This document shows positions 22,929 to 43,161 of a stretch of 64,000 bases of DNA, piece after piece. The notes beneath the pieces are model-generated. The model saw only the letters and a list, made by a program, of their open reading frames with translations. It was not told the origin of the DNA and ran no database searches. The first letter of the stretch is position 1. Every line of letters begins with the position of its first letter. Source of the DNA: Candidatus Woesearchaeota archaeon (lineage in GTDB: Archaea; Nanobdellota; Nanobdellia; SCGC-AAA011-G17; UBA489); NCBI GenBank assembly GCA_964344635.1, contig CAYFOE010000003.1:24389-88388 (forward strand). The letters are read 5' to 3'. Both the position numbers and the translations under genes were made by a program.

Positions 22929-23645
22929 TTAATCTTTCAAATTTTTAACAATACCCTGTAATTCTTTTACATTGCTTGTCAAAGGATTAATTATATTAGA
23001 AAGTAATTTACCCAGCGCCTTTATTTCAACACCCACTTCACCAACAGATTGATCATACTCCCTAACCTTACCAATTACCGAATTTTGTAAATTTTCGAAC
23101 CTATTTTCAACCCTCATAACCTCTTGCTTAATTGCATCAAGATCATTGTTTATCTTTTCCTTCCAAGACATAATATCTCCAAGATCTTCTGTTAATTTTT
23201 GCCACTTTTCATTAATTATCGATTCTGCAATCTCTTCAATGTCTTCAGAAGTAGCACCCAAACTTGTAGAATTAAAATTCATAGGCTGGCTTTCCGGCCA
23301 TGCCTGAGGCTGATAAGTGCCCTCAAAAGATTCAGTAGCCGGAGCAGGACTACTACCTGGCGTCGGAACAGGAATATCTGTCTCCGAGTTTAACTTTTCA
23401 GAATATATCACCGAAGGTTTCATCTCAGAAGGATTTTGTTCCACAGGCTGAGATTCTTGAGCCATCTCCTGTTGAGGCGGTTGCACTTGAGGTTCAACGC
23501 TAGCCTTAGCCTGAGCTTGATTCAAAGCTTCAGAAATCTGTTGGAAAGAATAACCCTGACCTTGAAGAGTCTGAATTATTTCAGTATTAGATTTACCCTC
23601 TGCTTGAAGTTCAATCGCTTTTTTCGTTGGAGTTTCTTCTGGCAA
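22929..23645 (-). CDS. coiled-coil protein with small N-terminal helical domain and Pro/Gln-rich linker
   Basis: N-terminal AIELQAEGKSNTEIIQTLQGQGYSFQQISEAL. Linker VEPQVQPPQQEMAQESQPVEQ. C-terminal about 110 aa heptad-rich. Divergent from the pilus ATPase gene. Confidence 0.45.
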   Translation of the reverse strand: MPEETPTKKAIELQAEGKSNTEIIQTLQGQGYSFQQISEALNQAQAKASVEPQVQPPQQEMAQESQPVEQNPSEMKPSVIYSEKLNSETDIPVPTPGSSPAPATESFEGTYQPQAWPESQPMNFNSTSLGATSEDIEEIAESIINEKWQKLTEDLGDIMSWKEKINNDLDAIKQEVMRVENRFENLQNSVIGKVREYDQSVGEVGVEIKALGKLLSNIINPLTSNVKELQGIVKNLKD

Positions 23646-24060
23646 CTTTTTTTACCTCTTTCTTATTTGTTGGATTTAGTTCAGATTTAAACCTTTCTAA
23701 TTTTTTATCTAGTTGTTCAGTAGTTACAAGTTCCAAAATATTGATCATATCTATGTATTTTTCTAAAACTTTTAACTGATCTTTTTTTGCAAAGATCTTC
23801 ATCTCCTTAACAACATCCTTCACAACTTCCTGCGTGTGTTCAGTCTTTATCCTAGACTGTTTTGTTTCATTAGATACATTACGAAGCTCTTTCATAATCT
23901 GTTTGTATTCCTCAATCATATTCTGATTGACAACCAACAATCTTTCAGTTAGTACATTATACTTATTTTCTAACGCCCTAATCCTTCCATTAAGATCTAG
24001 AATTAACTGACTAGGATCATTTTGACTAAATTGTTGTTCCGGCACTTTCTTTTTCCCCAA
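23611..24060 (-). CDS. coiled-coil protein (149 aa)
   Basis: Almost entirely heptad-repeat sequence. Overlaps the preceding gene end by 35 nt. Confidence 0.4.
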   Translation of the reverse strand: MGKKKVPEQQFSQNDPSQLILDLNGRIRALENKYNVLTERLLVVNQNMIEEYKQIMKELRNVSNETKQSRIKTEHTQEVVKDVVKEMKIFAKKDQLKVLEKYIDMINILELVTTEQLDKKLERFKSELNPTNKKEVKKVARRNSNEKSD

Positions 24061-24107
24061 CCTATTTAAGTTTAGGGCTATTTAAATACTTTTTCAGGAG
24101 AAATAGG

Positions 24108-24120
24108 AGCAATTTATATA
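24108..24120 (+). promoter_or_regulatory. TATA box / promoter of the pilus ATPase operon
   Basis: atttatataaatt lies about 25-35 bp upstream of ATG 24144. Confidence 0.35.
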
Positions 24121-24143
24121 AATTTGACAATAAGGAATACCAT

Positions 24144-26423
24144 ATGGCATTTAGAAAAGAGGGTCCTTATCAAGTAGTTAGAGAAGGTAATGAAGAAGTT
24201 TTGAGAGTAAACGCAATTTCTTGGAGCTATATCCCCTCAATTGAAGACATCCCACAAGTTATGTCCGAAGTTATAGACCACTTAGTTTCCTCTCCAGGCA
24301 TTAGGAGAATTGAATTCAACCAAAGAAAAAGATTTGCCTATTTTTATGACCAGACTCAAATGCTTTTAGAAATTGCAGGAATCTATTCTCACCTGATCAA
24401 AAACAAAAAAGCACTAAGTGTTTCAAGATGGGGCTTCGATGAAAAAAGTGCTAGATTCTTTGGAGGAAAACTAGGAGAATTACAACACTTAATCATGAAT
24501 CTCCTGAAGAGTGATCCAATTGGTGCATATGTTGAAACACTAAGAATAATCAGAGAAGAAAGAATCCTATTACAAAGAGACAAAGACGAAAAAATTGCAA
24601 GTGCTAGAACAAGTTACATTAAATTATTGGCAGAAATGGCAGACCTCCTAGGGAAAACCAAACTAATCCAACTAGCTGGCGACAGAATAGCAGGACACCA
24701 TGTAGGCGACAGAAAACTTTACAGGGATTACTTCCGTGCAACAATCACCCCAGATTTTATGTACACCAGACTAAAATCTAATCCGCCCCTGAAAGGAGAA
24801 GAGTTAGACTTCTACCAAGTAGGTTCAAATGAAGTTTCAATCTTTAGAATGCCTAACGACATCAAAAACTATTATCACTCCGTTCCCGTAGAATTCAAAT
24901 TAAGAGAAGACGAATATGAACTATTAGACCTTGCAAAAAACGTACTCGCAGGACATAAACCAAGAAATGAAGAATTTTTAGATCCCGAAAGAATGAGAAC
25001 AACATTCTTCAACATAGGAAAAGACCTATTGGACGAACTTGCAAAAAACAAAGGATACAATATCCCCTACGCAAGAATCTGCGACCTCGCCAGCATCCTA
25101 GTAAGATACACAGTAGGTTTTGGATTAATTGAAATATTACTAGCAGACAAAAAAGTACAAGACATTACAATAAACAGTCCCATCGGAAAATCACCAGTAT
25201 TTTTAGTACACCAAGATTACGGAGACTGCTACACCAACATCATGCCAAGTTTTGATGATGCACAAAGCTGGGCAACCAAATTTAGATTAATCAGTGGAAG
25301 ACCCTTAGACGAAGCAAATTCAGTTTTAGACACCGAACTAAATATTCCTGGAGGACGAAGCAGAGTAGCAATCATGACCAAACCCCTAAGTCCACAAGGG
25401 TTAGCCTTCGCATTCAGAAGACACAGAGATAGGCCATGGACACTACCATTATTCATTGAAAACAGAATGATCAGCCCACTAGGTGCAGGACTAGTTAGCT
25501 TCATGATCGACGGCGCTAGAACCATGTTAGTTGCAGGAACAAGAAGTAGCGGAAAGACAAGCTTACTTGGAAGCTTCTTAGTCGAAATAATGAGAAAATA
25601 CAGGATTATCACAGTTGAAGATACCTTAGAACTGCCTGTTGATTATATGAGGGGACTAGGATATAATGTTCAAAACATGAAAGTTCGTTCCGCACTAGCA
25701 CAAGGCGGTTCAGAGTTAGGCGCAGATGACGGAATTAGGACAAGCCTAAGACTGGGAGATAGCAGTTTGATCGTCGGAGAAGTAAGAAGTCTAGAAGCAA
25801 AAGCACTCTACGAAGCAATGAGAACCGGAGCACTAGCAAACGTAGTTGCAGGAACAATACACGGTGCAGATCCCTACGGAGTATTTGACAGAGTTGTAAA
25901 TGACCTCGGCGTTCCAAAAACAAGCTTCAAAGCAACAGACGCAATCATTGTCTCAAACCCAGTGAAAAGTGCAGATGGCCTGAGAAGTTGGAAAAGAGTC
26001 CTACAAATCTCAGAAGTCAGAAAACATTGGAATGACGACCCACTCGCAGAAAGAGGCTTTGTTGACTTAATGAAATATGACACTAAGAAAGACGAGTTAG
26101 TGCCCACCGCAGACCTGTTAAACGGAGAAAGTGACGTGATCAAATCCATCGCAGGAAACGTAAGAGAGTGGGTTGGAAACTGGGATGCAGTCTGGGAAAA
26201 TATCTTACTAAGAGCCAAGATAAAACAAACCTTAGTAGAATATTCCAGAAAAGCAAACAATAGAGAAATACTAGAATCCAATTTCGTCGTAGCATCAAAC
26301 GATGCATTCCACAGAGCCATCGAACAAGTTAGGAGAGAAGTCGGCGGCATCGATTCAAAGAGAGTTTTCTTTGAATGGGACGATTGGACAAGAAAGGCAA
26401 TAAAAAACCTTAAGAAAAAATAA
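24144..26423 (+). CDS. type II/IV secretion system ATPase (archaeal FlaI/PilB/GspE family) with about 300-aa N-terminal extension
   Basis: Walker A VAGTRSSGKTSLLGS. Walker B or Asp box IITVEDTLEL. His box VAGTIHGAD. 759 aa total. Confidence 0.85.
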   Translation: MAFRKEGPYQVVREGNEEVLRVNAISWSYIPSIEDIPQVMSEVIDHLVSSPGIRRIEFNQRKRFAYFYDQTQMLLEIAGIYSHLIKNKKALSVSRWGFDEKSARFFGGKLGELQHLIMNLLKSDPIGAYVETLRIIREERILLQRDKDEKIASARTSYIKLLAEMADLLGKTKLIQLAGDRIAGHHVGDRKLYRDYFRATITPDFMYTRLKSNPPLKGEELDFYQVGSNEVSIFRMPNDIKNYYHSVPVEFKLREDEYELLDLAKNVLAGHKPRNEEFLDPERMRTTFFNIGKDLLDELAKNKGYNIPYARICDLASILVRYTVGFGLIEILLADKKVQDITINSPIGKSPVFLVHQDYGDCYTNIMPSFDDAQSWATKFRLISGRPLDEANSVLDTELNIPGGRSRVAIMTKPLSPQGLAFAFRRHRDRPWTLPLFIENRMISPLGAGLVSFMIDGARTMLVAGTRSSGKTSLLGSFLVEIMRKYRIITVEDTLELPVDYMRGLGYNVQNMKVRSALAQGGSELGADDGIRTSLRLGDSSLIVGEVRSLEAKALYEAMRTGALANVVAGTIHGADPYGVFDRVVNDLGVPKTSFKATDAIIVSNPVKSADGLRSWKRVLQISEVRKHWNDDPLAERGFVDLMKYDTKKDELVPTADLLNGESDVIKSIAGNVREWVGNWDAVWENILLRAKIKQTLVEYSRKANNREILESNFVVASNDAFHRAIEQVRREVGGIDSKRVFFEWDDWTRKAIKNLKKK

Positions 26424-26437: not shown

Positions 26438-28582
26438 GTGGCAGACAAAGTTGACGATATTTTAAAGAAGTACGAAAGAAAACTTGGAGACGAGTATGGA
26501 GAAAACTACCTAGAAGATTTCGAACCAAGGTTGACCCACAAAGAATACGAAATATTTCGTTCAGAAGTTCTAGAAAGAAAAGTCACCAACTATGAAAAAT
26601 GGTGTTATTTTGCTGAAAAAATTTTGAAAGTAACCCCCTCCAAAAAAGACTTACCCGAACTTGAAAAAAGCATAGAAGTTGCACACCTAAACATAACTCC
26701 TAGATCTGCAGCAAGCCTTGGGGCTTTGTCTGGTCTGTCTTTAATATTCCTAGGAATTTTAGTGCTAGTAATGAGCTATGTTTTCGGAAGTTTAAGCATA
26801 TTTTTCCCATTATTCTTGATCATAGGCGGAGCTTTAATAATAAAGCCCCTGAGCAATGCTCCAAACTACTTAGCCAACCGTTGGAGACTAGAAGCAAGCA
26901 ACCAGATGGTTTTGTGTATACTATACATTGTCATGTACATGAGACACACAAGCAACCTGGAACACGCAGTTAAGTTTGCAGCAGAACACGTCGGACCCCC
27001 ACTAAGTCTAGACTTAAAAAAAGTATTCTGGGATATCCAAACTGAAAGATTCTTCAGCATAAAAGAAAGCCTAGATAACTATCTAGAAAGTTGGAGAGAT
27101 CACAACTTAGAATTTGTAGAATCATTTCATTTAATCGAAGGAAGCTTATACGAATCCAATGAAGGAAGAAGAGTCGAGTTATTAGAAAAAGCCTTGGAAG
27201 TTATGCTTGATGGAACCTACAACAAAATGTTACATTATGCACACAACCTGAAAGGGCCAATCACACTACTCTACATGCTAGGAGTAATCCTACCAATCCT
27301 AGGATTGGTTATCTTTCCACTAGTTGGAAGCTTTATGGGCGGAGCAGTCAGGTGGTACCACCTGGCAATGTTGTACAATGTAATCTTACCCATTGTCCTG
27401 ATAGTCATGGGCAGCAACATGTTAGCCAAAAGGCCTACCGGCTATGGAGAAAGTGAACTGTTAAAGACTAACCCAGAATTTAGAATTTATGAAAAATGGA
27501 TAATCAATGACAAAGTCGTTCCATTGAATCCCAAAGTTGCAAGCATCTTATTAGGAAGCTTCATTGCATTCATAGGTTTTCTACCTCTATTAATACACTT
27601 AGTTAATCCAGGATATGATGTCTCTCTGGGAAACCTAGGACACTTCTTAGACTTCAAAGACAGTAGCGGACCTTACGGAACAGGCGCATTGTTAATGAGT
27701 TTACTAATTCCACTAGGAATTGCATTAGGAATTTCCATGTACTACGGAATTAAAACCAATCGCTTAATCAAAATAAAAAAGAAAGTTGACACACTCGAAG
27801 AAGAATTCAGCGGAGCAGTCTTCCAATTAGGAAACAGAGTCGGCGATGGAATCCCCTCAGAAGTTGCATTCGGAGAAGTAGCCAAAACCATGAGCGGAAC
27901 TCCTACCGGAAATTTCTTCAGCACCGTCGATAGAAACATTAGAAAGTTAGGCCACGACATGCGAAGAGCAGTATTCGACGCAAGAGTCGGAGCAATACTA
28001 CTATTCCCAAGCAATCTAATCAACAGCACCATGAAAGTTTTAATCGAAAGTGCAAAAAAAGGGCCCCTAGTTGTAAGTACAAGTTTAATCACAATCAGCA
28101 AATACGTCGATAGAATCAAACAAGTCAACGAGAGACTGAAAGACCTACTTGCAGATGTACTAAGTAGCATGACCAGCCAGATCAATTTCCTGACACCATT
28201 GATTGCAGGAATTGTTGTAGGTGTAGGAAGCATGGTAACTGCAATCATCAATAAGCTAGGATCTGCGTTTAAAGGCATCGGAACTGGAGGTGCAGACGTT
28301 CCCACAAACCTCGGAACCATTGCAAGCATAATGAGAATAGAAGACGCCATCCCAGGATTCTACTTCCAACTAGTCGTAGGAATTTACGTTTTACAAATCA
28401 CCCTGATACTCACACTATTAAGCACAAACATCGAAAGAGGATCTGACATGACAACAGCAAAACACAGAATGGGAAAAAACGTCAGAAAAAGCGTAATCTT
28501 TTACGTAATTGTTTCATTGATTGGCGTAATACTATTCAATCTATTAGCCAACACAGTAAATTTTGCAACCGGAAGCGTTTAA
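26438..28582 (+). CDS. polytopic platform membrane protein (FlaJ/TadC/GspF-like)
   Basis: 714 aa. Two soluble domains each followed by clusters of TM helices. Positioned immediately after the ATPase as in archaellum and archaeal pilus operons. Confidence 0.65.
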   Translation: MADKVDDILKKYERKLGDEYGENYLEDFEPRLTHKEYEIFRSEVLERKVTNYEKWCYFAEKILKVTPSKKDLPELEKSIEVAHLNITPRSAASLGALSGLSLIFLGILVLVMSYVFGSLSIFFPLFLIIGGALIIKPLSNAPNYLANRWRLEASNQMVLCILYIVMYMRHTSNLEHAVKFAAEHVGPPLSLDLKKVFWDIQTERFFSIKESLDNYLESWRDHNLEFVESFHLIEGSLYESNEGRRVELLEKALEVMLDGTYNKMLHYAHNLKGPITLLYMLGVILPILGLVIFPLVGSFMGGAVRWYHLAMLYNVILPIVLIVMGSNMLAKRPTGYGESELLKTNPEFRIYEKWIINDKVVPLNPKVASILLGSFIAFIGFLPLLIHLVNPGYDVSLGNLGHFLDFKDSSGPYGTGALLMSLLIPLGIALGISMYYGIKTNRLIKIKKKVDTLEEEFSGAVFQLGNRVGDGIPSEVAFGEVAKTMSGTPTGNFFSTVDRNIRKLGHDMRRAVFDARVGAILLFPSNLINSTMKVLIESAKKGPLVVSTSLITISKYVDRIKQVNERLKDLLADVLSSMTSQINFLTPLIAGIVVGVGSMVTAIINKLGSAFKGIGTGGADVPTNLGTIASIMRIEDAIPGFYFQLVVGIYVLQITLILTLLSTNIERGSDMTTAKHRMGKNVRKSVIFYVIVSLIGVILFNLLANTVNFATGSV

Positions 28583-28626: not shown

Positions 28627-30915
28627 ATGGCAAAAGAGAGTGTTAACAGTTTTTACAAGAAGAGCATAATTCTATTTTCTAGTATGTTTTTGATACTAGC
28701 TGGATTTTTTTCAAAAACTGTAGATGCCGTAGTATATTTTGGGAATTATTATGGCGGAGGACTGTTTGGCTTTGGAGGTTCAGATTTATTGAGCCTTTAT
28801 TATTCCGCAAGCGGATGGTTTGATTTTGCACTGTTCTTCATGTTTTTCTATTCAATAGCAGACCTAGTCTTCAGTAAGAAATTTGGAGAAGAAAGATCTG
28901 CAAAAGGCTTAGCTTTAGCAGTGGGGTTGATGCTCTCATTAGGAGCCACACTATACCAAATGGCTAACGGCCTAGTCCTCTGGGATTGGGCAGGCCCAAT
29001 CGTAATCATGCTAGGAGTGTTACTAACATTTGCAACCGTGTTCTTAGCATTGAACCTACTGGGATTTCTCAAATGGTTATCAGCAATCCTTTCAGCAATA
29101 GTTACGTTGTTTGTATGGACTAGACTATGGGACAACAACTTCATCGATCTTGGCGATTTTTCAAACCCACTTGGAGCTGCAGGCCAATTTGTACTAGGAT
29201 TTATAGTTCTATTCTTAGCTGTAAAAATCCTAGCAGGATTAGCCAAACACAAAGGGAAGATTAAATTTCCAAAAATCAGAAGAAACAAAACCTCTTCTGT
29301 TCCTCCGCCCGTTCCAGACATCATAGACGACGTAGAATATACTGTAAGTCCTGTAGGCGAACCAATTCCTCGAAGTAAAGGCGCATTACTTCCTGGAAAA
29401 GAACAGAAAGCCTCAGAGGAATCAAAAGATTATTGGAAACAAACAAACATCAGCAAAGAAAGAATCTTACAATTATATTTAATTGTTAGAAAGATAAGAT
29501 CACTTTTGACTAACTGTTCAAAGAAAAGTAGACAAATAGAAGGGAGACTTGCAGGATTAAAAATTGAAATCCAAAAAGAAACAACCCTCTCAAGAGATAT
29601 AAAAAATTTAAACAAAAGAATCGACAAAGCCTACAAGGACTTATCTTATTTTGAAAAAACACTCCATTCAGAAAGCATTACCCTAGACGGCATTGAAAAT
29701 CTTAAAACATTCTTCGAAGGAATCATGAGAGACATTAACAAGATCTTGTCAGAAGTAAGTCATGTCAATTCAGTTAAGATGGACGTTAAAGCCATAGTTA
29801 GCTATTCTTCCAGTACTTGGAATGAAACCCTCAAAGATCTGAAAGAGAACGTTGTCGTTCTTAGATCCGAATTAGAAAGACATTTGAAAAAAAGCGCAAG
29901 AGGACTAACCCTCAGACAAGTACTGACCATACTGTCTACCTGGAAAAAGAACCTTCGTTCAGGAAGTTCAAGGCAAGTTACAAACTCCACAGCGAAACAG
30001 AAAGATTCTAATCAAGAAAATGTCGAAAGCGTATTTAGAGAAGTTGTCCTTAAGACTCATCCAGATAAAACTAGAAACTTTGATGAAGCTAGACGTGAAA
30101 AGTTGAGAAGACTGTTCGAACAAGCAACAGCATACAGAAAAGTAGGCGACCTGAATTCTTTAATCGGTGTCAGAGAAGAAGTTGACAGAATCTATAGCGA
30201 CTATGAAGCAGAAAGAGCTGAAGTTAAAAGAAAAAATTTAGCAGCAGGCGTAGACATCGAAGAATTTGAAAACCTACTATCCTTCCAAATAATGATTCCG
30301 AAATCCCATAAGAAAACTTTTGTTTCAGGGACAATGAAAAAAAGAAAGAGAGGATTAAACGTTGCCAACTTTGCATCCCACGTTATTTTCACACCGCCTA
30401 CAGGAGGAGAAGGAAACGCAAAAATAATGAGGCAACAACTAACAGAATTCATTCCAAACGCAATGAGTGCAGTCGAAGAAATAAAAAAATACCTAGACAA
30501 AATGGCATACTACTCAAGAGATTCCAAAACCTACAAACAATTTACCGAAATTCACAACAAAATAATCAAATACAAATCCATCGTAGATGACATCCAAACC
30601 AAAGTCCTTAGCAAAGGAATAATAAGATCTAGCTATAGGTCATTTACAAGATTAACTCAAGCAGACCCAACATTTATTGAAAAACTCTCAAAAAAATTCA
30701 AAATAGACCCATCAAAAATTACCTGGGGAAGCGTCGTTTCAGACCCAGACAAACTAGCATTCTTCTTAATGTATCCCGGAAAAAATTACGGACAAAAAGG
30801 ATTGTACGATTTCTTCGATAGAGCTTATGACTACTTTATAGATCTAGACATACAACTTGAAAAGATGAGGAATCTAATAAGTAGAAAGATCAAAAAAGGT
30901 TTGAAATATATTTGA
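28627..30915 (+). CDS. large membrane protein: N-terminal about 200-aa polytopic domain plus about 550-aa cytoplasmic coiled-coil region containing a J-domain-like HPDK segment
   Basis: TM helices to about residue 210. Then SVFREVVLKTHPDKTRNFDEARREKLRRLFEQATAYRKVGDL, which aligns with J-domain helices II and III around the invariant HPD. Confidence 0.45.
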   Translation: MAKESVNSFYKKSIILFSSMFLILAGFFSKTVDAVVYFGNYYGGGLFGFGGSDLLSLYYSASGWFDFALFFMFFYSIADLVFSKKFGEERSAKGLALAVGLMLSLGATLYQMANGLVLWDWAGPIVIMLGVLLTFATVFLALNLLGFLKWLSAILSAIVTLFVWTRLWDNNFIDLGDFSNPLGAAGQFVLGFIVLFLAVKILAGLAKHKGKIKFPKIRRNKTSSVPPPVPDIIDDVEYTVSPVGEPIPRSKGALLPGKEQKASEESKDYWKQTNISKERILQLYLIVRKIRSLLTNCSKKSRQIEGRLAGLKIEIQKETTLSRDIKNLNKRIDKAYKDLSYFEKTLHSESITLDGIENLKTFFEGIMRDINKILSEVSHVNSVKMDVKAIVSYSSSTWNETLKDLKENVVVLRSELERHLKKSARGLTLRQVLTILSTWKKNLRSGSSRQVTNSTAKQKDSNQENVESVFREVVLKTHPDKTRNFDEARREKLRRLFEQATAYRKVGDLNSLIGVREEVDRIYSDYEAERAEVKRKNLAAGVDIEEFENLLSFQIMIPKSHKKTFVSGTMKKRKRGLNVANFASHVIFTPPTGGEGNAKIMRQQLTEFIPNAMSAVEEIKKYLDKMAYYSRDSKTYKQFTEIHNKIIKYKSIVDDIQTKVLSKGIIRSSYRSFTRLTQADPTFIEKLSKKFKIDPSKITWGSVVSDPDKLAFFLMYPGKNYGQKGLYDFFDRAYDYFIDLDIQLEKMRNLISRKIKKGLKYI

Positions 30916-32256: not shown

Positions 32257-32367
32257 ATGAGGGGTCAGTACGGAACCAAGCATCTTGGTGTCTTAATCTT
32301 AGCAATCGTATTTTTCTTAATCATATTCTTAATTGTGAGAAACATCCTCGGAGGAGTGTTTAACTAA
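32257..32367 (+). CDS. possible small membrane peptide (36 aa)
   Basis: MRGQYGTKHLGVLILAIVFFLIIFLIVRNILGGVFN. It ends 1 nt before the next gene. Confidence 0.25.
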   Translation: MRGQYGTKHLGVLILAIVFFLIIFLIVRNILGGVFN

Positions 32368-32368
32368 A

Positions 32369-33268
32369 ATGAATAAAAAAGCAGCAATAGACATGCCCGC
32401 ATCTTTCTTGATTTCAGTAATCCTAGTAATGATAGTTGTAGCTGCATCCATCTTTTATTTTATGACAATTGCAGAAGTTTCTGAAGACATCGCCTTAGAT
32501 GATGCATGCAGGGCTAGTGTAGAAGCAAAATCCAGATTCAAGACAGACATTGCAGGAAGTCCTCTTTCTTTGAAATGCAGTCAAGAAGAAATAGTTTCTG
32601 AAGCAAAAACCAAAGAAGAAATCAGCTTAGAACTCACCCAAGAAATGTACAGTTGTTGGTACAAATACGGCGAAGGCCAAGTAGACTGGTTGAGCGATTG
32701 GGACTTTGGAGAAACAGACTTCCACTGCAGAATATGTTCCAGAATCTCTTACGGCGAAGATCACGAAGATTTAACCTTTGGCGAGTTTTACTCCTACCTA
32801 AACAATAAAAAAATACCCGGGAAAGACATTAGCTTTGCAGGATACTTCTCAGGAAATGAAAACGCAGTCCTACAATTTGGCGGTTCAGGGATGAACCAAT
32901 ACGACGCAATGGACTTAGATAAATCCGTTTACGTGGTTTATACAATCACCAAATTTGATCAAGATCGCTTAGATGACTTACAGAGACAATATGCATCATT
33001 CGAAGGAGGGGCAGCCTATGGAATGGGAAGCCTACCTGATGAAGTCGGTTCCGAAATTGATCCAGACCTAGTCAAAACAGGAGGAGCGGCAGTAGTTACC
33101 GGAGTAGCAGGAACAATCTTAGGATTCACACCAGTCGGATGGATCATAGCATTCGGCGCACTATCCAGCTGGGCAATATATGAACTATCCGGATCAGCAG
33201 AAATCCCATACTATTCGCTGGCTTTATTAAGTGCAGACGACATCGCAGGAATGTGTAGTGGGAGTTAA
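32369..33268 (+). CDS. pilin-like protein with class-III-type N-terminal signal/anchor
   Basis: MNKKAAIDMPASFLISVILVMIVVAASIFYF, then a Cys-containing extracellular domain. Confidence 0.45.
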   Translation: MNKKAAIDMPASFLISVILVMIVVAASIFYFMTIAEVSEDIALDDACRASVEAKSRFKTDIAGSPLSLKCSQEEIVSEAKTKEEISLELTQEMYSCWYKYGEGQVDWLSDWDFGETDFHCRICSRISYGEDHEDLTFGEFYSYLNNKKIPGKDISFAGYFSGNENAVLQFGGSGMNQYDAMDLDKSVYVVYTITKFDQDRLDDLQRQYASFEGGAAYGMGSLPDEVGSEIDPDLVKTGGAAVVTGVAGTILGFTPVGWIIAFGALSSWAIYELSGSAEIPYYSLALLSADDIAGMCSGS

Positions 33269-33273: not shown

Positions 33274-33408
33274 ATGGAAGGAGAGACACTAGGAAAACTT
33301 ATATTTTATGTAGCACTACTAATCCTATTAATATTAATAATAACAGAATTTTCACAAGGACAATTTAACCTATTAGAAAAACTAGAGGGGGTATTAAGAT
33401 TCAAATGA
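33274..33408 (+). CDS. small pilin-like peptide (44 aa)
   Basis: MEGETLGKLIFYVALLILLILIITEF. Confidence 0.3.
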   Translation: MEGETLGKLIFYVALLILLILIITEFSQGQFNLLEKLEGVLRFK

Positions 33409-33548
33409 TATACGGAAAAAAAGGTGCAGAACTAGCTATTGAAAAATTAATCAAATGGATAATAATCATAGCCATGATAGTAATCTTATTCTACTTTTTA
33501 ACAGGAATCAAGGAGGTAAGTGAAGCTTTCCTAAGCATCTTTAACTAA
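33405..33548 (+). CDS. small pilin-like peptide (47 aa)
   Basis: MIYGKKGAELAIEKLIKWIIIIAMIVILFYF: KKG followed by a hydrophobic helix. ATGA overlap with the previous ORF. Confidence 0.3.
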   Translation: MIYGKKGAELAIEKLIKWIIIIAMIVILFYFLTGIKEVSEAFLSIFN

Positions 33549-33549: not shown

Positions 33550-35112
33550 ATGAACAAAAAAGGAGACGCATTAGCCTTACGAAACATGATAGTGTTAATC
33601 ATCTTGATTCTTGTACTAGTGTGGGCCCTTGCAGGGCCTCTAAAATCCAGCCAACTTCTAGGCAGAGACCTAGGAGAAAAATCCTCAGAATTTGGTGAGT
33701 CATTCAAAGCATTAGAAATAGAAAGACTACTCACAATCGATAAAGATAAACTAAGTGACGAAGAAAGAGAACTCTTAGAAAGCGATGAAGTCGCAAATGC
33801 AAAAAGCAGCATAAATCTTGCAAGGAAATACATAGACGAAAGCAGGTATGAAGATGCAAGACAAGTATTAACAGAATCAAAAGAAAGTTTAGACTCTATT
33901 CGAGATTTTGAACTATTGAATGAAATCGATTCCCTAGTTGAAAAAACCAGAGAATACGAAAGACAAGCCCCATGGGAAGAAGAACTAGAAGTTCTAGAAC
34001 AAAGATACAGCCTATACAAAGGAACTAACGAAAAAGAAAAACTAGAACAATTAAGATTTGATGTGTTGAACTTCATGGAAGGAAAATACGGAAGAATTGC
34101 AGACGAAGCTAACGATCTATTGAAATCTATTGAAACAGACTTGAAGAGGTTGGGCGTTAGTTTTGTTGAAGGCGAAGCGAATTTAATCTCAGAGTATGAA
34201 CTTTTGATTACAACCGAAGGCGAAGACTATGAATATCTCTCCTTAGCAAGAGAATTTGTAGAACACTTCCCAACAAAAATTAATGAAATATTCAACTTGT
34301 ATAAACATGCAGAAGAAAAAGCAACAGACGATTATACCAAAGCAGTCTCAATCTTAGAATTAGCAACATTCTTTTACAACAAAGAAATGAAGTCCAATGC
34401 AGCATACGAATACAACAGAATTTACGCAGACATCTCCCTGAAATCCTCACTGAGTTCGGAAGATCTCAAAACATTACTGCGCAATAGAGGACTATTGTTA
34501 GATGAAGGATACTCTGAACTATTTTATTGGGATTTCATTGCAGTCAGCAAATTAACCTACAAGACAGGAATATTTTCATGGACTAAAATTGTAAGAGTTA
34601 ATTTCCCTTTTAATTTCCATTTTAAAGACGGCAGAACAACCGAGGTCTCCAAGTTTAATTCACTATTTGATAAAAAAGACTTCCAAACATTCGATGACCA
34701 GAAAAAGAAAGTTTCATTCTTTGTAGACTACTGGAAGAATATTGGAGCTTATAGCTCAAACGTTAGAAGTTTAACAGACGGAAACGATTTCCGAGGCCTT
34801 TATGACGGAAGTGATAACTTTGACTTTGTAGTAAGACTCTGGGGCGTAAACCAAGAATTCTTAGGCTGGTGTGCAATAGCAGAAGATTCAACAAAACCCC
34901 TACAAGAATACCTAGATAACAACATACCCGTAATCGGAAAAGATACAAGGGGCCGCACACATTGTATCGGTGCAAACGGAAACGAAGTTAATCCGTACAT
35001 GCTAGTTAATGTAATGAGTATCGAAGAATTAGACGACTCAAGCAGGATAACTCTGAGTCTAGAACTGTTAAAAGAATTCAAACCAGTCAAGCCTTACGAA
35101 TTGCAAGTATAG
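33550..35112 (+). CDS. large pilin-like / pilus-associated protein (520 aa) with class-III-type N-terminus
   Basis: MNKKGDALALRNMIVLIILILVLVWALAG, then a long acidic coiled-coil-rich and Cys-containing domain. Confidence 0.45.
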   Translation: MNKKGDALALRNMIVLIILILVLVWALAGPLKSSQLLGRDLGEKSSEFGESFKALEIERLLTIDKDKLSDEERELLESDEVANAKSSINLARKYIDESRYEDARQVLTESKESLDSIRDFELLNEIDSLVEKTREYERQAPWEEELEVLEQRYSLYKGTNEKEKLEQLRFDVLNFMEGKYGRIADEANDLLKSIETDLKRLGVSFVEGEANLISEYELLITTEGEDYEYLSLAREFVEHFPTKINEIFNLYKHAEEKATDDYTKAVSILELATFFYNKEMKSNAAYEYNRIYADISLKSSLSSEDLKTLLRNRGLLLDEGYSELFYWDFIAVSKLTYKTGIFSWTKIVRVNFPFNFHFKDGRTTEVSKFNSLFDKKDFQTFDDQKKKVSFFVDYWKNIGAYSSNVRSLTDGNDFRGLYDGSDNFDFVVRLWGVNQEFLGWCAIAEDSTKPLQEYLDNNIPVIGKDTRGRTHCIGANGNEVNPYMLVNVMSIEELDDSSRITLSLELLKEFKPVKPYELQV

Positions 35113-35153: not shown

Positions 35154-35603
35154 ATGGAAAAAAGAGTTGCTTTAAGGAATTACTTAAAGGATAAGAGAGG
35201 TGTCGAGCTTACACTTAATACCGTTATAATTTCAATACTAGTTGTTTTAGTCCTAGTTGTAATTATTGCATTCTTTTTAGGTGGAACCACCAAAGCAAAA
35301 GGTACTATTGCAGAAATTTATAACGTAGGATCCGCAGGTGCAGACATAGAACAAGCAATCCTTCTTTGTAACAACTACTGTGACCAAGCAAGAGATTGGA
35401 ATCCGACACTGCAAACAAACTCGCCCTACTGTACTAAAGCGTTCAAACTAGACCTAGATGGTGATGGCGAAGCAGATAAAATTGAATCTACAGGGGGATA
35501 TGAAGAATATTACTGTGCAGGTTCAACTTTGAATGTCAGGTGTCCAGATATTTTGAATACTCCAGGCGTGACCTGTAAGACCGAAGACGTAGTGGCTAAT
35601 TAG
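35154..35603 (+). CDS. pilin-like protein
   Basis: MEKRVALRNYLKDKRGVELTLNTVIISILVVLVLVVIIAFF. C-terminal Cys-rich domain with DLDGDGEADKIE. ATG at 35154 preferred over the upstream GTG of the listed ORF. Confidence 0.45.
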   Translation: MEKRVALRNYLKDKRGVELTLNTVIISILVVLVLVVIIAFFLGGTTKAKGTIAEIYNVGSAGADIEQAILLCNNYCDQARDWNPTLQTNSPYCTKAFKLDLDGDGEADKIESTGGYEEYYCAGSTLNVRCPDILNTPGVTCKTEDVVAN

Positions 35604-36160: not shown

Positions 36161-36529
36161 ATGAACAAAAAGGGGTACGATATGTCTTTGATACATGTCA
36201 TTTATTTAGTCATAGGATTAATCATCCTAATCTCAGCACTAGGAAAAATCTACATGAATAAAGACGACACAGGATATTACCTAGAATACTATTCTAAAGA
36301 TCTCTCAGTAGGGATCGAAGCATTCCTCCAATCAGACATAGAAGGAAGTTTCGTATATGGATTGAGAGAAGGTTTTGAAGTTAAAATAGATAATTCCGAA
36401 GGCAAAGTTTACGTAAAGAACGATAACGCCATAGTAGATGATGACTTTAGGACAAGAGATGGTTTTTTCATAAATTTGAAAACTGAGGAAAATAATTTGA
36501 TCATCAACAAGAGAGAGGCAACAGTATAA
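36161..36529 (+). CDS. pilin-like protein
   Basis: MNKKGYDMSLIHVIYLVIGLIILISALG. Confidence 0.4.
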   Translation: MNKKGYDMSLIHVIYLVIGLIILISALGKIYMNKDDTGYYLEYYSKDLSVGIEAFLQSDIEGSFVYGLREGFEVKIDNSEGKVYVKNDNAIVDDDFRTRDGFFINLKTEENNLIINKREATV

Positions 36530-38262: not shown

Positions 38263-39267
38263 ATGATGGGCTTAAACTTCGATGAAATCGTTTCTCAAAT
38301 CAAAGAAAAAGCAGGATTATCCGAAGAAGACATCAAACTCAAAATTTCTCAAAAAAGAGACAAATTAAGCGGCCTCGTAAGTGAAGAAGGCGCAGCACAC
38401 ATTCTTGCAAATGAACTAGGTATTGATTTAATGGAATCAATCAGGAAACACGGTTTGAAGATTGACAAATTAAAAGCAGGAATGAGAGTCGGAGTTACCG
38501 GAAAAGTTGTGAAAATGTACGAAGTTAGATCCTTCCAAAAAAATGAAAGATCAGGAAAAGTTGGAAGTTTTTTGATCGGAGATGATTCAGGATTAATCAG
38601 GATTGTAATGTGGGATGAAGGACTAATCTCAAAAATGGAATCTGGGGAAATTAAACAAGATGTGATCGTTAAGATAGAGAACGGAAATGTAAGAGAAAAT
38701 AATGGATATAGTGAAATGCACTTAGGAAATTACAGCCAGTTAGAAGTAAACCCTCCCGGAGTTGGCGATATCCAAGTTGTTCAGAAAGGCTCTCTCTCAG
38801 GAGACATGGGCTCCTCAGAAATTAAGTTCGGAAAGTTAAGTGAAGCAGCAGTTGGAGAAAATGTTACAGTTTACGGAACCATTGTTCAATTGTTTGAACC
38901 TAGATCTTACGAAGGTTGTTCAGAATGTGGAAGAAAAGTAATCGAAGGCAAATGCAGTACACATCCTGATGGCACAGCTAAAAAAATTCCAATTGTCAAT
39001 TTTTTCTTAGATGACGGACACGCAGGAATGAGAGCTGTAGCGTTTAGAGATGTAGCTTCTAAATTATTAAACCTTGACGAGGCTAGCATGTTAAACGTGA
39101 TTGAGAACCCCTCAGCTTTTGAAGAAGTAAAGAAAAATGTATTAGGTACACAGAAAGTAATCAGTGGAAGAATTACATCCAACGAATTATACAACCGTAA
39201 CGAGTTCTTAGTCAGAGGCATCCATGAAATGGACACTGCTGAGATCTTACAAAAAATTGCAAATTAG
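38263..39267 (+). CDS. rpa: replication protein A (RPA/SSB) with OB folds and C4 zinc ribbon
   Basis: N-terminal SEEGAAHILANELGI block is characteristic of archaeal RPA. OB-fold-like segments. CSECGRKVIEGKCSTH. Confidence 0.7.
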   Translation: MMGLNFDEIVSQIKEKAGLSEEDIKLKISQKRDKLSGLVSEEGAAHILANELGIDLMESIRKHGLKIDKLKAGMRVGVTGKVVKMYEVRSFQKNERSGKVGSFLIGDDSGLIRIVMWDEGLISKMESGEIKQDVIVKIENGNVRENNGYSEMHLGNYSQLEVNPPGVGDIQVVQKGSLSGDMGSSEIKFGKLSEAAVGENVTVYGTIVQLFEPRSYEGCSECGRKVIEGKCSTHPDGTAKKIPIVNFFLDDGHAGMRAVAFRDVASKLLNLDEASMLNVIENPSAFEEVKKNVLGTQKVISGRITSNELYNRNEFLVRGIHEMDTAEILQKIAN

Positions 39268-39300
39268 TTTTTGATAAGTTTTTTAAAGTAGGTTATTCTA

Positions 39301-39678
39301 ATGAAAATTATGCCCAAGAAAAAAAAGAGTCTGAGTGGCTTTCCAATTCATTCTAGAAATTTCTTTTTCGTAATAGCTTTAGCATTTTTAGCATTCGTTT
39401 TGTTCTCCCACGAGGGCGAGAATAAACTAACCGAGAACATTGTCGATCCAGGAGTAAGAGATGAATCTTGGATTATAAACGAGTGTACATTCAGTTCAGC
39501 AGAAGACGCAGCGAATGAGTTTAAATGGGCCTTTGGTTGCAAAAAAGATTATTGCAAAGCTGCAGGTTACGGCATAGACCTACTGAGGAACATCCATTTA
39601 GAAGTCCCTTGTAGAACAGTGGACCAAAAGGTAGAATGGATAGACCATTGTACTGAGGCCTTTGAGAGTATTTGTTAG
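39301..39678 (+). CDS. membrane-anchored Cys-rich hypothetical protein
   Basis: N-terminal TM FFFVIALAFLAFVLF, then a 6-Cys extracytoplasmic domain. Confidence 0.35.
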   Translation: MKIMPKKKKSLSGFPIHSRNFFFVIALAFLAFVLFSHEGENKLTENIVDPGVRDESWIINECTFSSAEDAANEFKWAFGCKKDYCKAAGYGIDLLRNIHLEVPCRTVDQKVEWIDHCTEAFESIC

Positions 39679-39809
39679 ACCTGCATTTATCGCACTTACC
39701 GATAATTGGAAGATTCTTTATAAAACTCAAATATTTAACGAGATTGTCCTGAAAGGACATATAAAATCAAAACCCTATGGGGCTCTTAATACAAGAGTAG
39801 GAGGCAAAA

Positions 39810-40106
39810 ATGAAAAAAGAAGACGTAAAAATAAGTTCTATGGAGTCTGCTCCAAAGAGACCATTCAAAGAATGGAAAGCTGGAAATCTACAAGCCGCAT
39901 TGTGGAAAAACAAAAAAGCTATGGACGATGGTTCTGAAATTGAATTCAAAACCGTAAGTCTTACAAGAAGCTATAGGAAAACCGGCGAAGACATTTGGAG
40001 ACACGACGCGATCAACCTGAGAAGGAATGATCTACAAAAAGCAATCCTAGTATTGCAAAAGGCACAAGAAGAATTATTGATTTATTCAAAGGACGACGAG
40101 GAGTGA
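39810..40106 (+). CDS. hypothetical protein (98 aa)
   Basis: ORF with a plausible RBS-like ggaggc upstream. No motif assigned. Confidence 0.3.
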   Translation: MKKEDVKISSMESAPKRPFKEWKAGNLQAALWKNKKAMDDGSEIEFKTVSLTRSYRKTGEDIWRHDAINLRRNDLQKAILVLQKAQEELLIYSKDDEE

Positions 40107-40116
40107 GGTGATTTAG

Positions 40117-41103
40117 ATGGCAAAGAGTGCAGAAGTTCCTGAACAATTAAAAAATAAAGATGAAGTTAAAGTGACAGATTTGCCCGGAGTGGGCGCTGCA
40201 ACTGCTGAGAAATTAGCAGAAGCAGGTTTTGATTCCCTAATGGCTCTTGCTGTAGCAAGCCCGGCAACCGTTGTCGAAATTGCAGGCGTCGGAGAAGCTC
40301 CCGCAAGAAAAATAATCAACGCTGCTAGAAATTCACTAGACATGGGTTTCGAAAGTGGAATAGATTTACTAGACAAAAGATCGTCAGTCCTTAAAATTAG
40401 CACAGGCTCTAAAAATGTCGACGAAATGCTCGGAGGAGGCATGGAATCAGGAGCCATAACAGAATGCTACGGTGCATACGGTTCCGGAAAAACAAGTATC
40501 GCCCACCAACTTGCCGTTAACGTTCAACTACCTAGAGAACAAGGCGGAGCAGACGGCATCGCAGTCTGGATCGACACAGAAGGAACACTCAGGCCAGAAT
40601 ATCTGAAACCAATTGCAGAAGCAAAAGGCATGGACGTTGATGAAGCCCTAAAAAACTTTAGAGGAGTTAGAGCATTTAATTCAGACCATCAAATGCTTCT
40701 AGCAGAAAAAGTCGAAGACCTTATCAAAAAAGACGGATTGCCAGTGAGATTGATTATCATCGATTCATTAATGGGACATTTTAGAAGTGAATTCTCAGGA
40801 AGAGGAACCCTAGCAGACAGGCAACAAAAACTGAACAAACACCTACACGCACTGCTGAAAATAGCAACACAATACAACATCGCAGTCTACATAACCAACC
40901 AAGTTATGTCCAAGCCAGACACCTTCTTCGGAGATCCTACAGAAGCTATCGGTGGACACGTAGTTGCACACACCAGCACAGTAAGAGTATATCTCAGAAG
41001 AGGAAAAAAAGGAACCAGAGTTGCAAAATTAGTAGATGCACCAGCATTACCTGATGGAGAAGCAGCATTTATGGTGACAAACGAAGGAATCAAAGACGTT
41101 TGA
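40117..41103 (+). CDS. radA: RadA recombinase
   Basis: N-terminal HhH LPGVGAATAEKLAEAGF. Walker A GAYGSGKTSIAHQLA. Walker B LIIIDSLM. Confidence 0.92.
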   Translation: MAKSAEVPEQLKNKDEVKVTDLPGVGAATAEKLAEAGFDSLMALAVASPATVVEIAGVGEAPARKIINAARNSLDMGFESGIDLLDKRSSVLKISTGSKNVDEMLGGGMESGAITECYGAYGSGKTSIAHQLAVNVQLPREQGGADGIAVWIDTEGTLRPEYLKPIAEAKGMDVDEALKNFRGVRAFNSDHQMLLAEKVEDLIKKDGLPVRLIIIDSLMGHFRSEFSGRGTLADRQQKLNKHLHALLKIATQYNIAVYITNQVMSKPDTFFGDPTEAIGGHVVAHTSTVRVYLRRGKKGTRVAKLVDAPALPDGEAAFMVTNEGIKDV

Positions 41104-41111
41104 TTGCTTTA

Positions 41112-41185
41112 TGTCCCTGCCAGGATTTGAACCTGACTCTCAACCTCCGCAAGGTTACGTGCTATCCAGACTACACCACAGGGAC
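41112..41185 (-). tRNA. tRNA-Arg (anticodon GCG); no encoded CCA
   Basis: Reverse complement folds as: acceptor GTCCCTG/CAGGGAC; D arm GTGT-AGTCTGGATA-GCAC; anticodon arm TAACC-TTGCGGA-GGTTG; T arm TCAGG-TTCAAAT-CCTGG; discriminator A. 74 nt. Confidence 0.85.
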
Positions 41186-41273
41186 TTACCCGTTCTCGAG
41201 GTTCCCAGCTTTAAAAGGCTTATTAGGCAGTTTAGTAAGTTTTATAAAGCCCCTCCGGGTTTTTCACGATACA

Positions 41274-41450
41274 ATGGATAACAAAATCTACAAATGCGTA
41301 AGTACTGGAAATTCAGTAACAAATGACAAAGGAAGCTCTATTTTTGATTGCCCAGGCTGCGGAAAACAAAAAGTAGTGAGATCTTACAACGCAAGACAAA
41401 TATCTGCAAAATATGTTTGTCCAGAATGTGGTTTTGAAGGTCCAAACTAG
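41274..41450 (+). CDS. small zinc-ribbon protein (58 aa, two CxxC pairs), conserved neighbour of aEF-1beta
   Basis: MDNKIYKCVSTG...DCPGCGKQ...VCPECGF. The listed longer ORF from 41100 would overlap the tRNA and is rejected. Confidence 0.5.
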   Translation: MDNKIYKCVSTGNSVTNDKGSSIFDCPGCGKQKVVRSYNARQISAKYVCPECGFEGPN

Positions 41451-41464
41451 GAGAGTGTAGATTT

Positions 41465-41743
41465 ATGGCAAGAGTTATTGTAACATTCAAAGTTATGCCT
41501 GAAAGCATGGATGTAAACTTAGACGACATTAAAGGATTAGTTAAGCAACACGTTGAAACTTTTGAAGGGACTATGAATGGCGACATGACTGAAGAGCCTG
41601 TAGCTTTCGGTCTGAAAGCAGTTAAAGCATCATTTTCATACGATGAATCTAAAGGTTCATCCGACGAACTAGAAGAAAAGTTAGTAGCTGAAGACATCAT
41701 CCAAAGCGTTGAAGTTTTGAGTGTTGGAAGAGCAATGGGATAA
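41465..41743 (+). CDS. translation elongation factor 1-beta (aEF-1beta)
   Basis: About 90 aa. MARVIVTFKVMPESMDVNLDDIKGLVK...FGLKAVKASFSYDES...EDIIQSVEVLSV matches the archaeal EF1B fold. Confidence 0.8.
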   Translation: MARVIVTFKVMPESMDVNLDDIKGLVKQHVETFEGTMNGDMTEEPVAFGLKAVKASFSYDESKGSSDELEEKLVAEDIIQSVEVLSVGRAMG

Positions 41744-41773
41744 TTTTTTATATCTCCCTTTTACTTTTATTTT

Positions 41774-42286
41774 ATGTCTGAAGAAAATAAGTGCATTTTT
41801 TGTAGCATTATAGATGGTTCTGCACAAAGTGTTAAAGTTTATGAAGACGAATTTATTCTAGGCGTTCTGGATATTTTTCCCGCAACACCCGGACATGTAT
41901 TAATCATCCCAAAGAGACATGTCGCAACTAGTTCCCAATTAGAAGATAAAGAAGAAGCACATTTTTTTAAGATGGGCAACAAAATTGCAAGCTGTGTTTT
42001 TGAAGCAATGGAAGCAAAAGGCACAAATCTACTAGTATCTAACGGAACTCATGCCGGACAGAAAGTCGGACATGTGACTATGAGTGTAATACCCAGATAT
42101 GAAAATGATGGAGTTAACATTTCCTGGGACGCAAAACAAATTGACGAAGAGTCTCTGAAAAATTCTTTTGAAAAAATAGTAAGCAGGACGGCAAACCTGA
42201 TGAAAGAAACTGCCCCTAAAAAAGAAGAAGTTCAAGCAATGGAAGAATTAGAAGAAGAAACTTTTGACAATTATAGAATTCCTTAG
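41774..42286 (+). CDS. HIT-family (histidine triad) nucleotide hydrolase
   Basis: CIFCSI...PATPGHVLIIPKRH and histidine triad HVHMSVIP-like GHVTMSVIP. Confidence 0.75.
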   Translation: MSEENKCIFCSIIDGSAQSVKVYEDEFILGVLDIFPATPGHVLIIPKRHVATSSQLEDKEEAHFFKMGNKIASCVFEAMEAKGTNLLVSNGTHAGQKVGHVTMSVIPRYENDGVNISWDAKQIDEESLKNSFEKIVSRTANLMKETAPKKEEVQAMEELEEETFDNYRIP

Positions 42287-43161
42287 ATTAAAGGAAAGAA
42301 CAATGCACTTCCAGTGATCAACGTTATTACGGTCCCTATGAAAAATGGAGGTACAAACGGAATACCTTCACTAACCACTATCGATTTTATTTTCTCTTTT
42401 TTTAGAAGCTCAATACCCTTTTTGTCAATGCCGTAAGGACTCACTTGATAAATCAGTCTTCTATTCTTGTAAACATCACTCTGTACCCAATCCCCCTCAG
42501 TCAGTTTATTCACCGGGATCTCCTTGTACATGCATGCAAGTTCTATAGCCTTTAATACAATCAATATGTAAGGAATCACTAGGATTGTTATAGACATTAA
42601 ACCACCTAGATGTTTTAGTTCTGAAGGAAGGAAAGTAAACGCAGTGATGAATATCAAAAGTGCGATAGAGAGCATACTAATCTTCATACTTCTAGTTTTG
42701 GCATCCAAGTTTAATTTTCTAAACTCTCTTTTGAATTTCCCCCAGTGTTTTATTGTAAGATATAATGCATAAAGCATCCCATAGATTGCTCCCGTGATTA
42801 ATATGTTCAATAATAATTTTGCAGGGAAAGGTACAATTGACGCAACATTAATGTACGAAGGTGTTGTAGCGAATGCACTTCCAATTACTGCAATGAGTTT
42901 TGTATCTCCACCACCCCACTGCTTTGTAAAATACATTAAGTTTCCAAATGCAAAAAATATTGCGAATACCATTGTGGTTTGGAGGATGAATTCGGAATTT
43001 CTCAAAATTAATGATTCGATAATTCTTGCCGAAAAAATGTAGAATAAAGATCCGTAACTTAACCAATCAGGAATTTCCCTTGTTTTTAAGTCCGAAAGTG
43101 ACGCAAACAATAGCGCAATCAGCACTGGAACTGCGATTAGAACATCGAAGAGTAAAATCAT
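42283..43161 (-). CDS. A24-family prepilin/preflagellin peptidase (PibD/FlaK-like) with extra C-terminal membrane domain
   Basis: First catalytic Asp block ASLSDLKTREIPDWL. Second block WGGGDTKLIAVIGSAF. Polytopic. Confidence 0.7.
   Translation of the reverse strand: MILLFDVLIAVPVLIALLFASLSDLKTREIPDWLSYGSLFYIFSARIIESLILRNSEFILQTTMVFAIFFAFGNLMYFTKQWGGGDTKLIAVIGSAFATTPSYINVASIVPFPAKLLLNILITGAIYGMLYALYLTIKHWGKFKREFRKLNLDAKTRSMKISMLSIALLIFITAFTFLPSELKHLGGLMSITILVIPYILIVLKAIELACMYKEIPVNKLTEGDWVQSDVYKNRRLIYQVSPYGIDKKGIELLKKEKIKSIVVSEGIPFVPPFFIGTVITLITGSALFFPLI

Follow-up and report, generated by a model that had tools for sequence, protein, structure and literature searches.

The passages of a 2026 census that describe System 2 of the archaeal type IV filaments (10.64898/2026.04.22.720090) give it assembly ATPases whose N-terminal regions, and in some cases C-terminal ones too, are lengthened, just one platform gene, a number of class-III pilins together with pilin-like proteins that lack the motif, additional membrane proteins and adhesin-like proteins of large size. 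In the part of the 2016 census that treats the same group as Makarova clade 2, the pilins may be encoded in trans and the members include some 'nanoarchaea' (PMC4858521). System 1, in the corresponding 2026 passages, is defined by two platform genes of TadB/TadC type, and its Methanococcus clusters have a dedicated peptidase, EpdA (10.64898/2026.04.22.720090). DPANN archaea or nanoarchaea are mentioned briefly, and Woesearchaeota not at all, in the searched text of the two censuses (PMC4858521; 10.64898/2026.04.22.720090). Here we describe a locus in a 64,000-nucleotide stretch of DNA from a Candidatus Woesearchaeota archaeon (assembly GCA_964344635.1, contig CAYFOE010000003.1, positions 24,389 to 88,388; hereafter the window, from whose first letter all coordinates are counted), which very probably encodes machinery for a type IV filament, type IV pilus-like and other than an archaellum, of a kind typical of Woesearchaeota. 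Woesearchaeota are abundant, uncultivated, small-genome archaea thought to be attached to hosts.

Compared by description, all the features reported for System 2 (Makarova clade 2, with Haloferax volcanii PilB/PilC and the GspE of Archaeoglobus fulgidus, afGspE) hold in the window, and this published description appears to be the best fit. The four component classes that define a type IV filament system are present: an ATPase, a platform protein, leader-bearing subunits and an A24 peptidase. The window sequence, with a G+C content of about 37%, is identical to a stretch of a 222.9-kb metagenome contig (ENA ERZ930063, run ERR2281807). Its closest genome relatives are metagenome-assembled genomes of Woesearchaeota (DPANN), the nearest being from bins SI047 and SI054 with an ATPase 82% identical, and the complete genomes AR20 (CP010426) and CP066683 count among the relatives of the locus. 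Synteny counts were taken over 80 related genome loci around ATPase homologues. The open reading frames (ORFs) named in an earlier note on this stretch all exist where it had placed them.

The ATPase gene (24144..26423, + strand) encodes a 759-aa protein of the PilB/GspE/FlaI (T2SSE) family with a C-terminal tail. It matched Pfam T2SSE with 53 bits (E 2.8e-14, cut-off 24.9), and over residues ~293-653 it matched afGspE (2oap, E 3.9e-26), CpaF (1.3e-20) and FlaI (5.3e-17) in the PDB. Its Walker A sequence GTRSSGKTS, its Walker B/Glu residues (G545, E546) and its His box (H573) are invariant in an alignment with 12 homologues. The PDB alignments begin at residues 293-320 of the query as opposed to residue ~120 of FlaI and afGspE; the T2SSE core starts at about residue 300-320, and the roughly 300 residues that precede it, a family-specific region, are about 200 more than FlaI or afGspE have. 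The proposed N-terminal extension is therefore real, but it does not make the locus odd, because homologues number more than 6000 and a length of about 760 aa is a family trait among the matches listed. In NCBIfam the top match was the FlaI model NF058587 with 118.3 bits against a cut-off of 550, and the TadA model scored 116 bits; some homologues carry the name FlaI at the Joint Genome Institute (JGI). A score this far under the cut-off, and at the level of TadA, speaks against a true archaellum FlaI, in line with the earlier view of the apparatus as a pilus. Some Woesearchaeota copies of the ATPase (P0034, P0040, P0047, P0090 and P0118) are 1269-1280 aa long and contain intein/LAGLIDADG domains (PF14528, PF14890), so that in some lineages the pilus ATPase gene hosts an intein.

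Fourteen bp after the ATPase gene starts the gene (26438..28582, +) for a 714-aa polytopic membrane protein with about eight transmembrane (TM) helices and two cytoplasmic helical bundles. ATPase and platform are the constant pair of the 80 related loci, the pairing being kept in 74 of them, and no second platform homologue was found in the window or in the related loci. Membership of the T2SSF family could not be established at the level of sequence: the protein had no Pfam or NCBIfam match even at E<=10 and no PDB match with phmmer, its family profile aligned to E. coli HofC with an hhalign probability of 0.8%, and comparison of its N-terminal with its C-terminal half was negative or non-significant. 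There are at least 2892 homologues, all of those listed lack a precomputed Pfam domain, and nearly all of the named ones are called hypothetical. An AlphaFold2 model built from 32 homologues (mean predicted local distance difference test score, pLDDT, 78; predicted TM-score, pTM, 0.73) places the cytoplasmic bundles at about residues 141-237 and 445-560, with long TM helices after each of them. In Foldseek the model matched the cytoplasmic domain of OutF (probability 1.00, TM-score 0.75) and EpsF (probability 0.99). Because of this predicted fold and the position of the gene beside the ATPase, we accept the protein as a very divergent platform with a GspF/PilC-type fold. A FlaJ/TadC-like platform had been named at this place, and that identification holds for predicted fold and position but not for sequence similarity to T2SSF models.

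The subunits are encoded in a run of eleven co-directional ORFs (32257-38202, +), eight of 122-520 aa and three tiny ones of 36, 44 and 47 aa that fall below the usual ORF length cut-offs. Nine of the eleven start with a short basic leader ending in Gly or Ala, followed by one hydrophobic helix. The nine leaders are MRG, MNKKA, MIYGKKG, MNKKG, DKRG, DKRG, MNKKG, MLAKKG and MNYSKKG, with the consensus MNK[KR]G/ (a slash marks the predicted end of the leader). The leader is absent from the window copies of the 44-aa ORF and of the ORF at 36529-36936. Ten or more tightly packed genes of this class had been reported here; eleven are present, but two of them lack the leader, and the three tiny ORFs had escaped notice.

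The run opens with the 36-aa pilin-like ORF (32257..32367, +), which has the leader MRG/Q, a hydrophobic helix and a short tail and which has relatives in the same place in four loci. Its first large gene (32369..33268, +) encodes a 299-aa pilin-like protein with an MNKKA leader, an N-terminal helix, a Cys-rich domain and a C-terminal TM helix; homologues lie downstream of the ATPase in 26 loci. The 44-aa pilin-like ORF (33274..33408, +) belongs to a family found in 20 related loci, always on the + strand and +5.3 to +9.6 kb from the ATPase. Most of the listed copies have a KKG or KRG leader, often with WEEI next, a TM helix and an RFG end, and the window copy has lost the KKG leader. The 47-aa ORF (33405..33548, +; MIYGKKG/AEL), with one helix and no globular domain, is a candidate Flp/Epd-like pilin. 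A large pilin-like protein of 520 aa (33550..35112, +) combines an MNKKG leader and helix with a long acidic helical region and a C-terminal domain. It is fast-evolving, with a blastp match in one of the 80 loci and class-III ORFs of similar size in the same place in L006 and L012, and it is a candidate minor pilin or adhesin. The best-conserved globular pilin is a 149-aa protein (35154..35603, +; DKRG/VELTLNTVIISILVV...) with a Cys-rich C-terminal domain, which has homologues in 21 loci at about +7.8 kb and near-identical N-termini in AR20, CP066683, L006 and L012; its N-terminal 30 residues are homologous to those of the 299-aa protein (hhalign probability 94%, E 1.3e-7). The remaining five genes (35638-38202, +) are tightly packed with overlaps of 1-11 bp, and their pilin-like products have no Pfam match: 162 aa with a KRG leader (35638-36126), 122 aa with an MNKKG leader (36161-36529), 135 aa with a hydrophobic helix and no basic-Gly leader (36529-36936), 173 aa with a KKG leader (36926-37447) and 252 aa with a KKG leader (37444-38202).

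Leaders were scanned for across the related loci with a custom motif search (a short basic stretch with [KR][GA], then a hydrophobic helix). On the ATPase strand, the density of leader-bearing ORFs is 0.26-0.75 per kb in the interval from +4 to +10 kb, and 0.00-0.20 per kb upstream on the same strand (at most 0.13 with the genes for the five-TM (5-TM) paralogs described below excluded). A logo of 86 ORFs from the 80 loci, anchored only on [KR]G, returned Lys at position −3 in 88%, Asn at −4 in 53% and Met at −5 in 45% without these having been imposed. After the Gly come a short polar stretch, with a frequent Glu at +2, and then about 20 aliphatic residues (Ile, Leu or Val). The recurrence of MNK[KR]G/ on otherwise unrelated proteins across many genomes fits a class III signal peptide and not a generic signal anchor, and supports the prediction of a class-III-type leader on the run ORFs.

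The A24 prepilin peptidase of FlaK/PibD type (42283..43161, − strand; 292 aa) would act in trans. It matched Pfam Peptidase_A24 with 50 bits (cut-off 26.5), and in an alignment to FlaK (3s0x) both Asp motifs were matched (SDLKTREIPD and GGGD); judged by these conserved motifs the enzyme is predicted to be catalytically intact. A matching peptidase 4 kb downstream had been part of the earlier description. The enzyme is indeed there, but it lies on the opposite strand from the pilin genes and behind housekeeping genes, and in other genomes it is not linked to the ATPase. The intervening stretch (38263-42286) holds genes for RPA, RadA, a zinc-finger protein, EF-1beta and HIT, a tRNA-Arg gene, and two small ORFs without assigned function (39301-39678 and 39810-40106). 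We therefore rejected the span 22929-43161 as one apparatus. The locus is also not self-contained, as had been claimed, because in addition to the position of the peptidase an antisense gene splits the pilins from the ATPase operon.

In a machine of this composition, the prepilins would insert into the membrane and the A24 peptidase would remove the MNK[KR]G leader. A hexameric ATPase docked on the cytoplasmic bundles of the platform would drive the withdrawal of mature pilins out of the membrane and their assembly into a polymer through the N-terminal helices. The filament body would probably be made of the conserved 149-aa pilin or of one of the tiny Flp/Epd-like pilins of 36-47 aa, and the larger, fast-evolving pilin-like proteins (299, 520 and 252 aa) may serve as minor subunits or at the tip and confer binding specificity. 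The role is most likely adhesion or cell contact, which fits the groundwater reports of pili joining ultra-small cells to hosts (PMC9938205, citing He et al.), and host attachment may be the function. The earlier preference for a pilus over a motility organelle is thus upheld as regards a type IV filament machinery other than an archaellum, whereas adhesion and host attachment are its inferred part.

The same ATPase-platform-pilin layout recurs across Woesearchaeota, so that the novelty once ascribed to the locus mostly disappears: within a very large family conserved in Woesearchaeota, it is a typical case. A pilin run is the common state without being obligatory. Sixteen of the 35 related loci with at least 8 kb of downstream sequence carry at least six leader-bearing ORFs, and in AR20 and CP066683 eight or nine leader-bearing genes directly follow the platform gene. 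A subclade of six loci (L035, L052, L069, L073, L081 and L082; ATPase 55-57% identical) has only the ATPase-platform pair. The upstream module described below is missing there, as is any pilin run over a distance of 10 kb, and five of these loci have an RPA-like gene antisense downstream.

Three observations count against a type IV filament as the product of this locus. None of the run pilins matches any Pfam or NCBIfam pilin or archaellin model, a polar stretch of about seven residues separates the Gly from the hydrophobic core, which is not typical of type IV pilins, and 11 of the 35 loci have no leader-bearing run beside the ATPase. It follows from the last that pilins can be encoded in trans and that their linkage in the window is no proof.

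Among the other explanations, the one that survives best is a short pseudopilus or an uptake or secretion device (Com-like DNA uptake, a piston like that of the type II secretion system, or a bindosome-like assembly) in place of a long adhesive pilus. DPANN archaea depend on external nucleotides and lipids, which would suit such a device, as would the many small, minor-pilin-like subunits and the three tiny pilins. Binding proteins with class III signals have moreover been proposed to functionalise archaeal type IV filament machines, in the part of the 2026 census that deals with them (10.64898/2026.04.22.720090). Pfam scans, however, found no ComEC/ComEA, nuclease or substrate-binding-protein domains in the locus, and the large, fast-evolving pilin-like proteins look more like adhesins; filament length is something that sequence cannot discriminate. 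We consider a device of this kind improbable, although less so than the two explanations that follow. The first of these takes the 'pilins' for ordinary N-terminally anchored (type II) surface proteins that happen to neighbour an unrelated pair of ATPase and membrane protein. The lack of matches to pilin family models, the 11 loci without nearby leaders and a platform without sequence homology to T2SSF would all be expected from it. A positive-inside anchor, on the other hand, predicts neither a fixed MNK[KR]G leader with an invariant Gly/Ala across 80 genomes nor strand-specific clustering behind the ATPase, and with an intact A24 peptidase present and a platform of predicted GspF/PilC-type fold we regard this explanation as very unlikely. 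An archaellum, or a rotating pilus-like filament with coiled-coil proteins in the role of FlaX/FlaCDE, is hardly credible: FlaI is the top NCBIfam match of the ATPase and the JGI name of some homologues, some cultivated DPANN archaea (Nanobdella) have archaella according to the portion of PMC11104419 that mentions them, and cytoplasmic coiled-coil proteins do accompany the ATPase, but afGspE and CpaF are closer to it than FlaI in the PDB, and Pfam and NCBIfam scans of the window ORFs of at least 90 aa (about 69 ORFs) returned no archaellin, KaiC-like FlaH, FlaF/G, FlaX/CDE or chemotaxis (Che) domain.

The archaellum does resemble the window system in that its ATPase family is homologous, its platform is polytopic and its subunits are of class III, and in having an A24 peptidase. 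An archaellum identity was nevertheless rejected on the ATPase score relative to the FlaI equivalog model, and because of that score and the absence of archaellum and chemotaxis genes among the ORFs scanned, which the earlier note had also reported, motility is unlikely. Compared with System 1 (the Epd pili of Methanococcus and the bacterial Tad-Flp pili), the window is similar in its multi-gene pilin set with very small pilins that lack a globular domain, in the strong PDB match of its ATPase to CpaF and in a TadA model score as high as that of FlaI; it differs in having one 714-aa platform gene and an unlinked peptidase. The Aap and Ups pili of Sulfolobales are likewise adhesive or cell-cell-contact pili made from one ATPase, one platform and few pilins, but the window, set apart from them by their descriptions, has many more pilin genes and a much longer ATPase. 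No Fe-S AapX-like or UpsX-like protein, and no other accessory domain of such pili, was among the Pfam scan matches of the window, and nothing in it points to Aap or Ups. From System 2, of which afGspE is the best solved-structure match of the window ATPase, the locus differs in that its platform escapes T2SSF sequence models and its pilins match no PilA/arCOG-type model used; the 5-TM triplet and the coiled-coil pair that adjoin its ATPase, taken up next, are not mentioned in the 2016 and 2026 census passages. We count the locus as a variant because of the platform that is undetectable by sequence, the MNK[KR]G leader, the tiny pilins and the possibly associated 5-TM and coiled-coil module. 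The platform and all the pilins escape the Pfam and NCBIfam models used, and profile-based censuses may therefore miss or under-classify the system. The cluster is a conserved candidate contact organelle of Woesearchaeota, and annotation, proteomics and cryo-electron tomography can take its MNK[KR]G/ leader, the families of tiny pilins and the module of conserved neighbours as handles.

Directly upstream of the ATPase and divergent from it are genes for two cytoplasmic coiled-coil proteins of 238 and 149 aa (22929..24060, −), in agreement with the earlier description. They adjoin the ATPase in 57-58 of the 80 loci and are candidate accessory subunits. Their matches in Pfam, in NCBIfam and, by family profile, in the PDB were limited to generic coiled coils, and mutual paralogy was not significant (hhalign probability 15%). 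Beyond them are genes, missed before, for three paralogous 5-TM proteins of 177, 185 and 171 aa (21253..22923, +), which align to one another with hhalign probabilities of 99.4-100% and share the N-terminal motif FD-x2-LPFLLVFT. These proteins have no Pfam match, a Foldseek search of the PDB with an AlphaFold2 model (pLDDT 78, pTM 0.47) found no structural relative (best E 3.4), and in hhalign they were unrelated to the N-domain of the 762-aa protein and to the 247-aa membrane protein, both described below.

The 5-TM genes are conserved neighbours of the ATPase: of the 54 ATPase loci whose upstream sequence reaches far enough, 42 have them. In a further 80 metagenome loci (L089-L168), an independent sample gathered with the 5-TM family, the genes form triplets in 31 of 33 loci; coiled-coil genes come next in 27 of 32, and the ATPase gene lies no more than 4.5 kb away in 25 of 29. 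We consider it possible, though doubtful, that the 5-TM triplet and the coiled-coil pair together form an accessory subcomplex, so far undescribed, of the type IV filament machine of Woesearchaeota; the filament of this machine could be formed by the Flp/Epd-like pilins of 35-50 aa. The block could then act as a cytoplasmic scaffold or stator, anchored in the membrane, to which the lineage-specific N-terminal domain of the ATPase docks. The association holds in both directions, and the seven-gene arrangement is kept where the upstream context differs (L087). Against an accessory subcomplex, the block can occur apart from the ATPase: in L086 the 5-TM triplet precedes a pair of minus-strand genes that match the coiled-coil genes in size and position, and the 8 kb shown contain no ATPase. 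The genes on the far side of the block are also kept almost as often. Located at 19447-21231, they encode a 247-aa protein with six TM helices, a member of the TraB/PrgY family and a PRC-barrel protein of 101 aa (18 bits, sub-threshold), and about 70% of related loci have them upstream of the 5-TM triplet. Much of the neighbour signal may thus reflect a collinearity that is general in this lineage. In other lineages PRC-barrel proteins have a link to archaeal cell division, so that some of the syntenic block may have nothing to do with the pilus.

In the window, four genes separate the platform gene from the pilin run. The first (28627..30915, +) encodes a 762-aa protein with six predicted TM helices in its N-terminal domain (about residues 14-207) and a long soluble, coiled-coil C-terminal part, much as it had been described. 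It was matched in five of the 80 related loci. By iteration with a hidden Markov model, the N-domain alone recurs: 12 loci have it, at +4.4 to +5.7 kb and in every case next after the platform, mostly as a protein of about 220-245 aa. The C-terminal part is rare, with 51 clusters among 1.84 billion representatives and six of these at E<=1e-30. The C-terminal two-thirds of the protein thus extends a recurring membrane domain in a lineage-specific way. The protein had also been called a J-domain protein, and we rejected this as unproven. It scored 17.2 bits against Pfam DnaJ (cut-off 27.8), three distant relatives scored 18.8-23.3 bits, also below the cut-off, and the HPD motif is not conserved, THPDK in the window being SYPDK in the closest orthologue (L006).

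The other three genes encode a 144-aa protein, a protein that belongs to DUF5652 (Pfam E 1e-21) and a 181-aa protein consisting of a voltage sensor only (31631-32176, −). The last of these matched Pfam Ion_trans with 27.6 bits (cut-off 25) over profile positions 8-114 of 241, which correspond to S1-S4 without the pore domain, and the voltage-sensor-like protein of the earlier account is thereby confirmed. In its S4 segment an Arg occurs at every third or fourth residue, a stand-alone voltage sensor in a small-genome archaeon. The 144-aa, DUF5652 and voltage-sensor genes are each matched in one or two of the 80 loci, all close relatives, and the voltage-sensor gene is syntenic in two, the closest relatives of all. 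Together with a gap of 192 bp, this antisense gene separates the pilin run from the ATPase side, and its orientation makes the motor and the pilin genes separate transcription units. The three are probably insertions, unrelated to the system, that lie between the motor operon and the pilin operon. The 'unusual accessory set' that had seemed to distinguish the locus, judged by the counts for all four genes, is mostly a local, lineage-specific gene insertion.

Two leader-bearing ORFs elsewhere in the window are possible pilins encoded in trans. One, of 401 aa, has a class-III-like start (ARG/AAYLIMM...) and lies within a second group of predicted membrane or secreted proteins after the peptidase (43195-48847); the other is an isolated Cys-rich ORF of 83 aa (16705-16956, −) that starts MKKG/ESTSF and is conserved in L006. 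In the housekeeping stretch before the peptidase, a tRNA-Arg (GCG) gene (41112-41185, −) overlaps the 5' part of the mechanically called ORF 41100-41450, of which the Pfam match to HVO_2753-like zinc fingers is limited to residues 66-111. The overlap implies that the real HVO_2753-like zinc-finger gene is much shorter than this ORF.

The remainder of the window carries archaeal housekeeping genes, among them those for LonB, Cdc6/Orc1, the small and large subunits of PolD, NifS/NifU, a Hef-type helicase and nuclease, RPA, RadA, EF-1beta, aIF2-alpha, TruD, FtsY, SRP54 and S15. The region 6001-13650, in which an AT-rich stretch (G+C 0.30 in 6001-8000) lies directly upstream of the Cdc6/Orc1 and PolD subunit genes, is plausibly a replication origin region.

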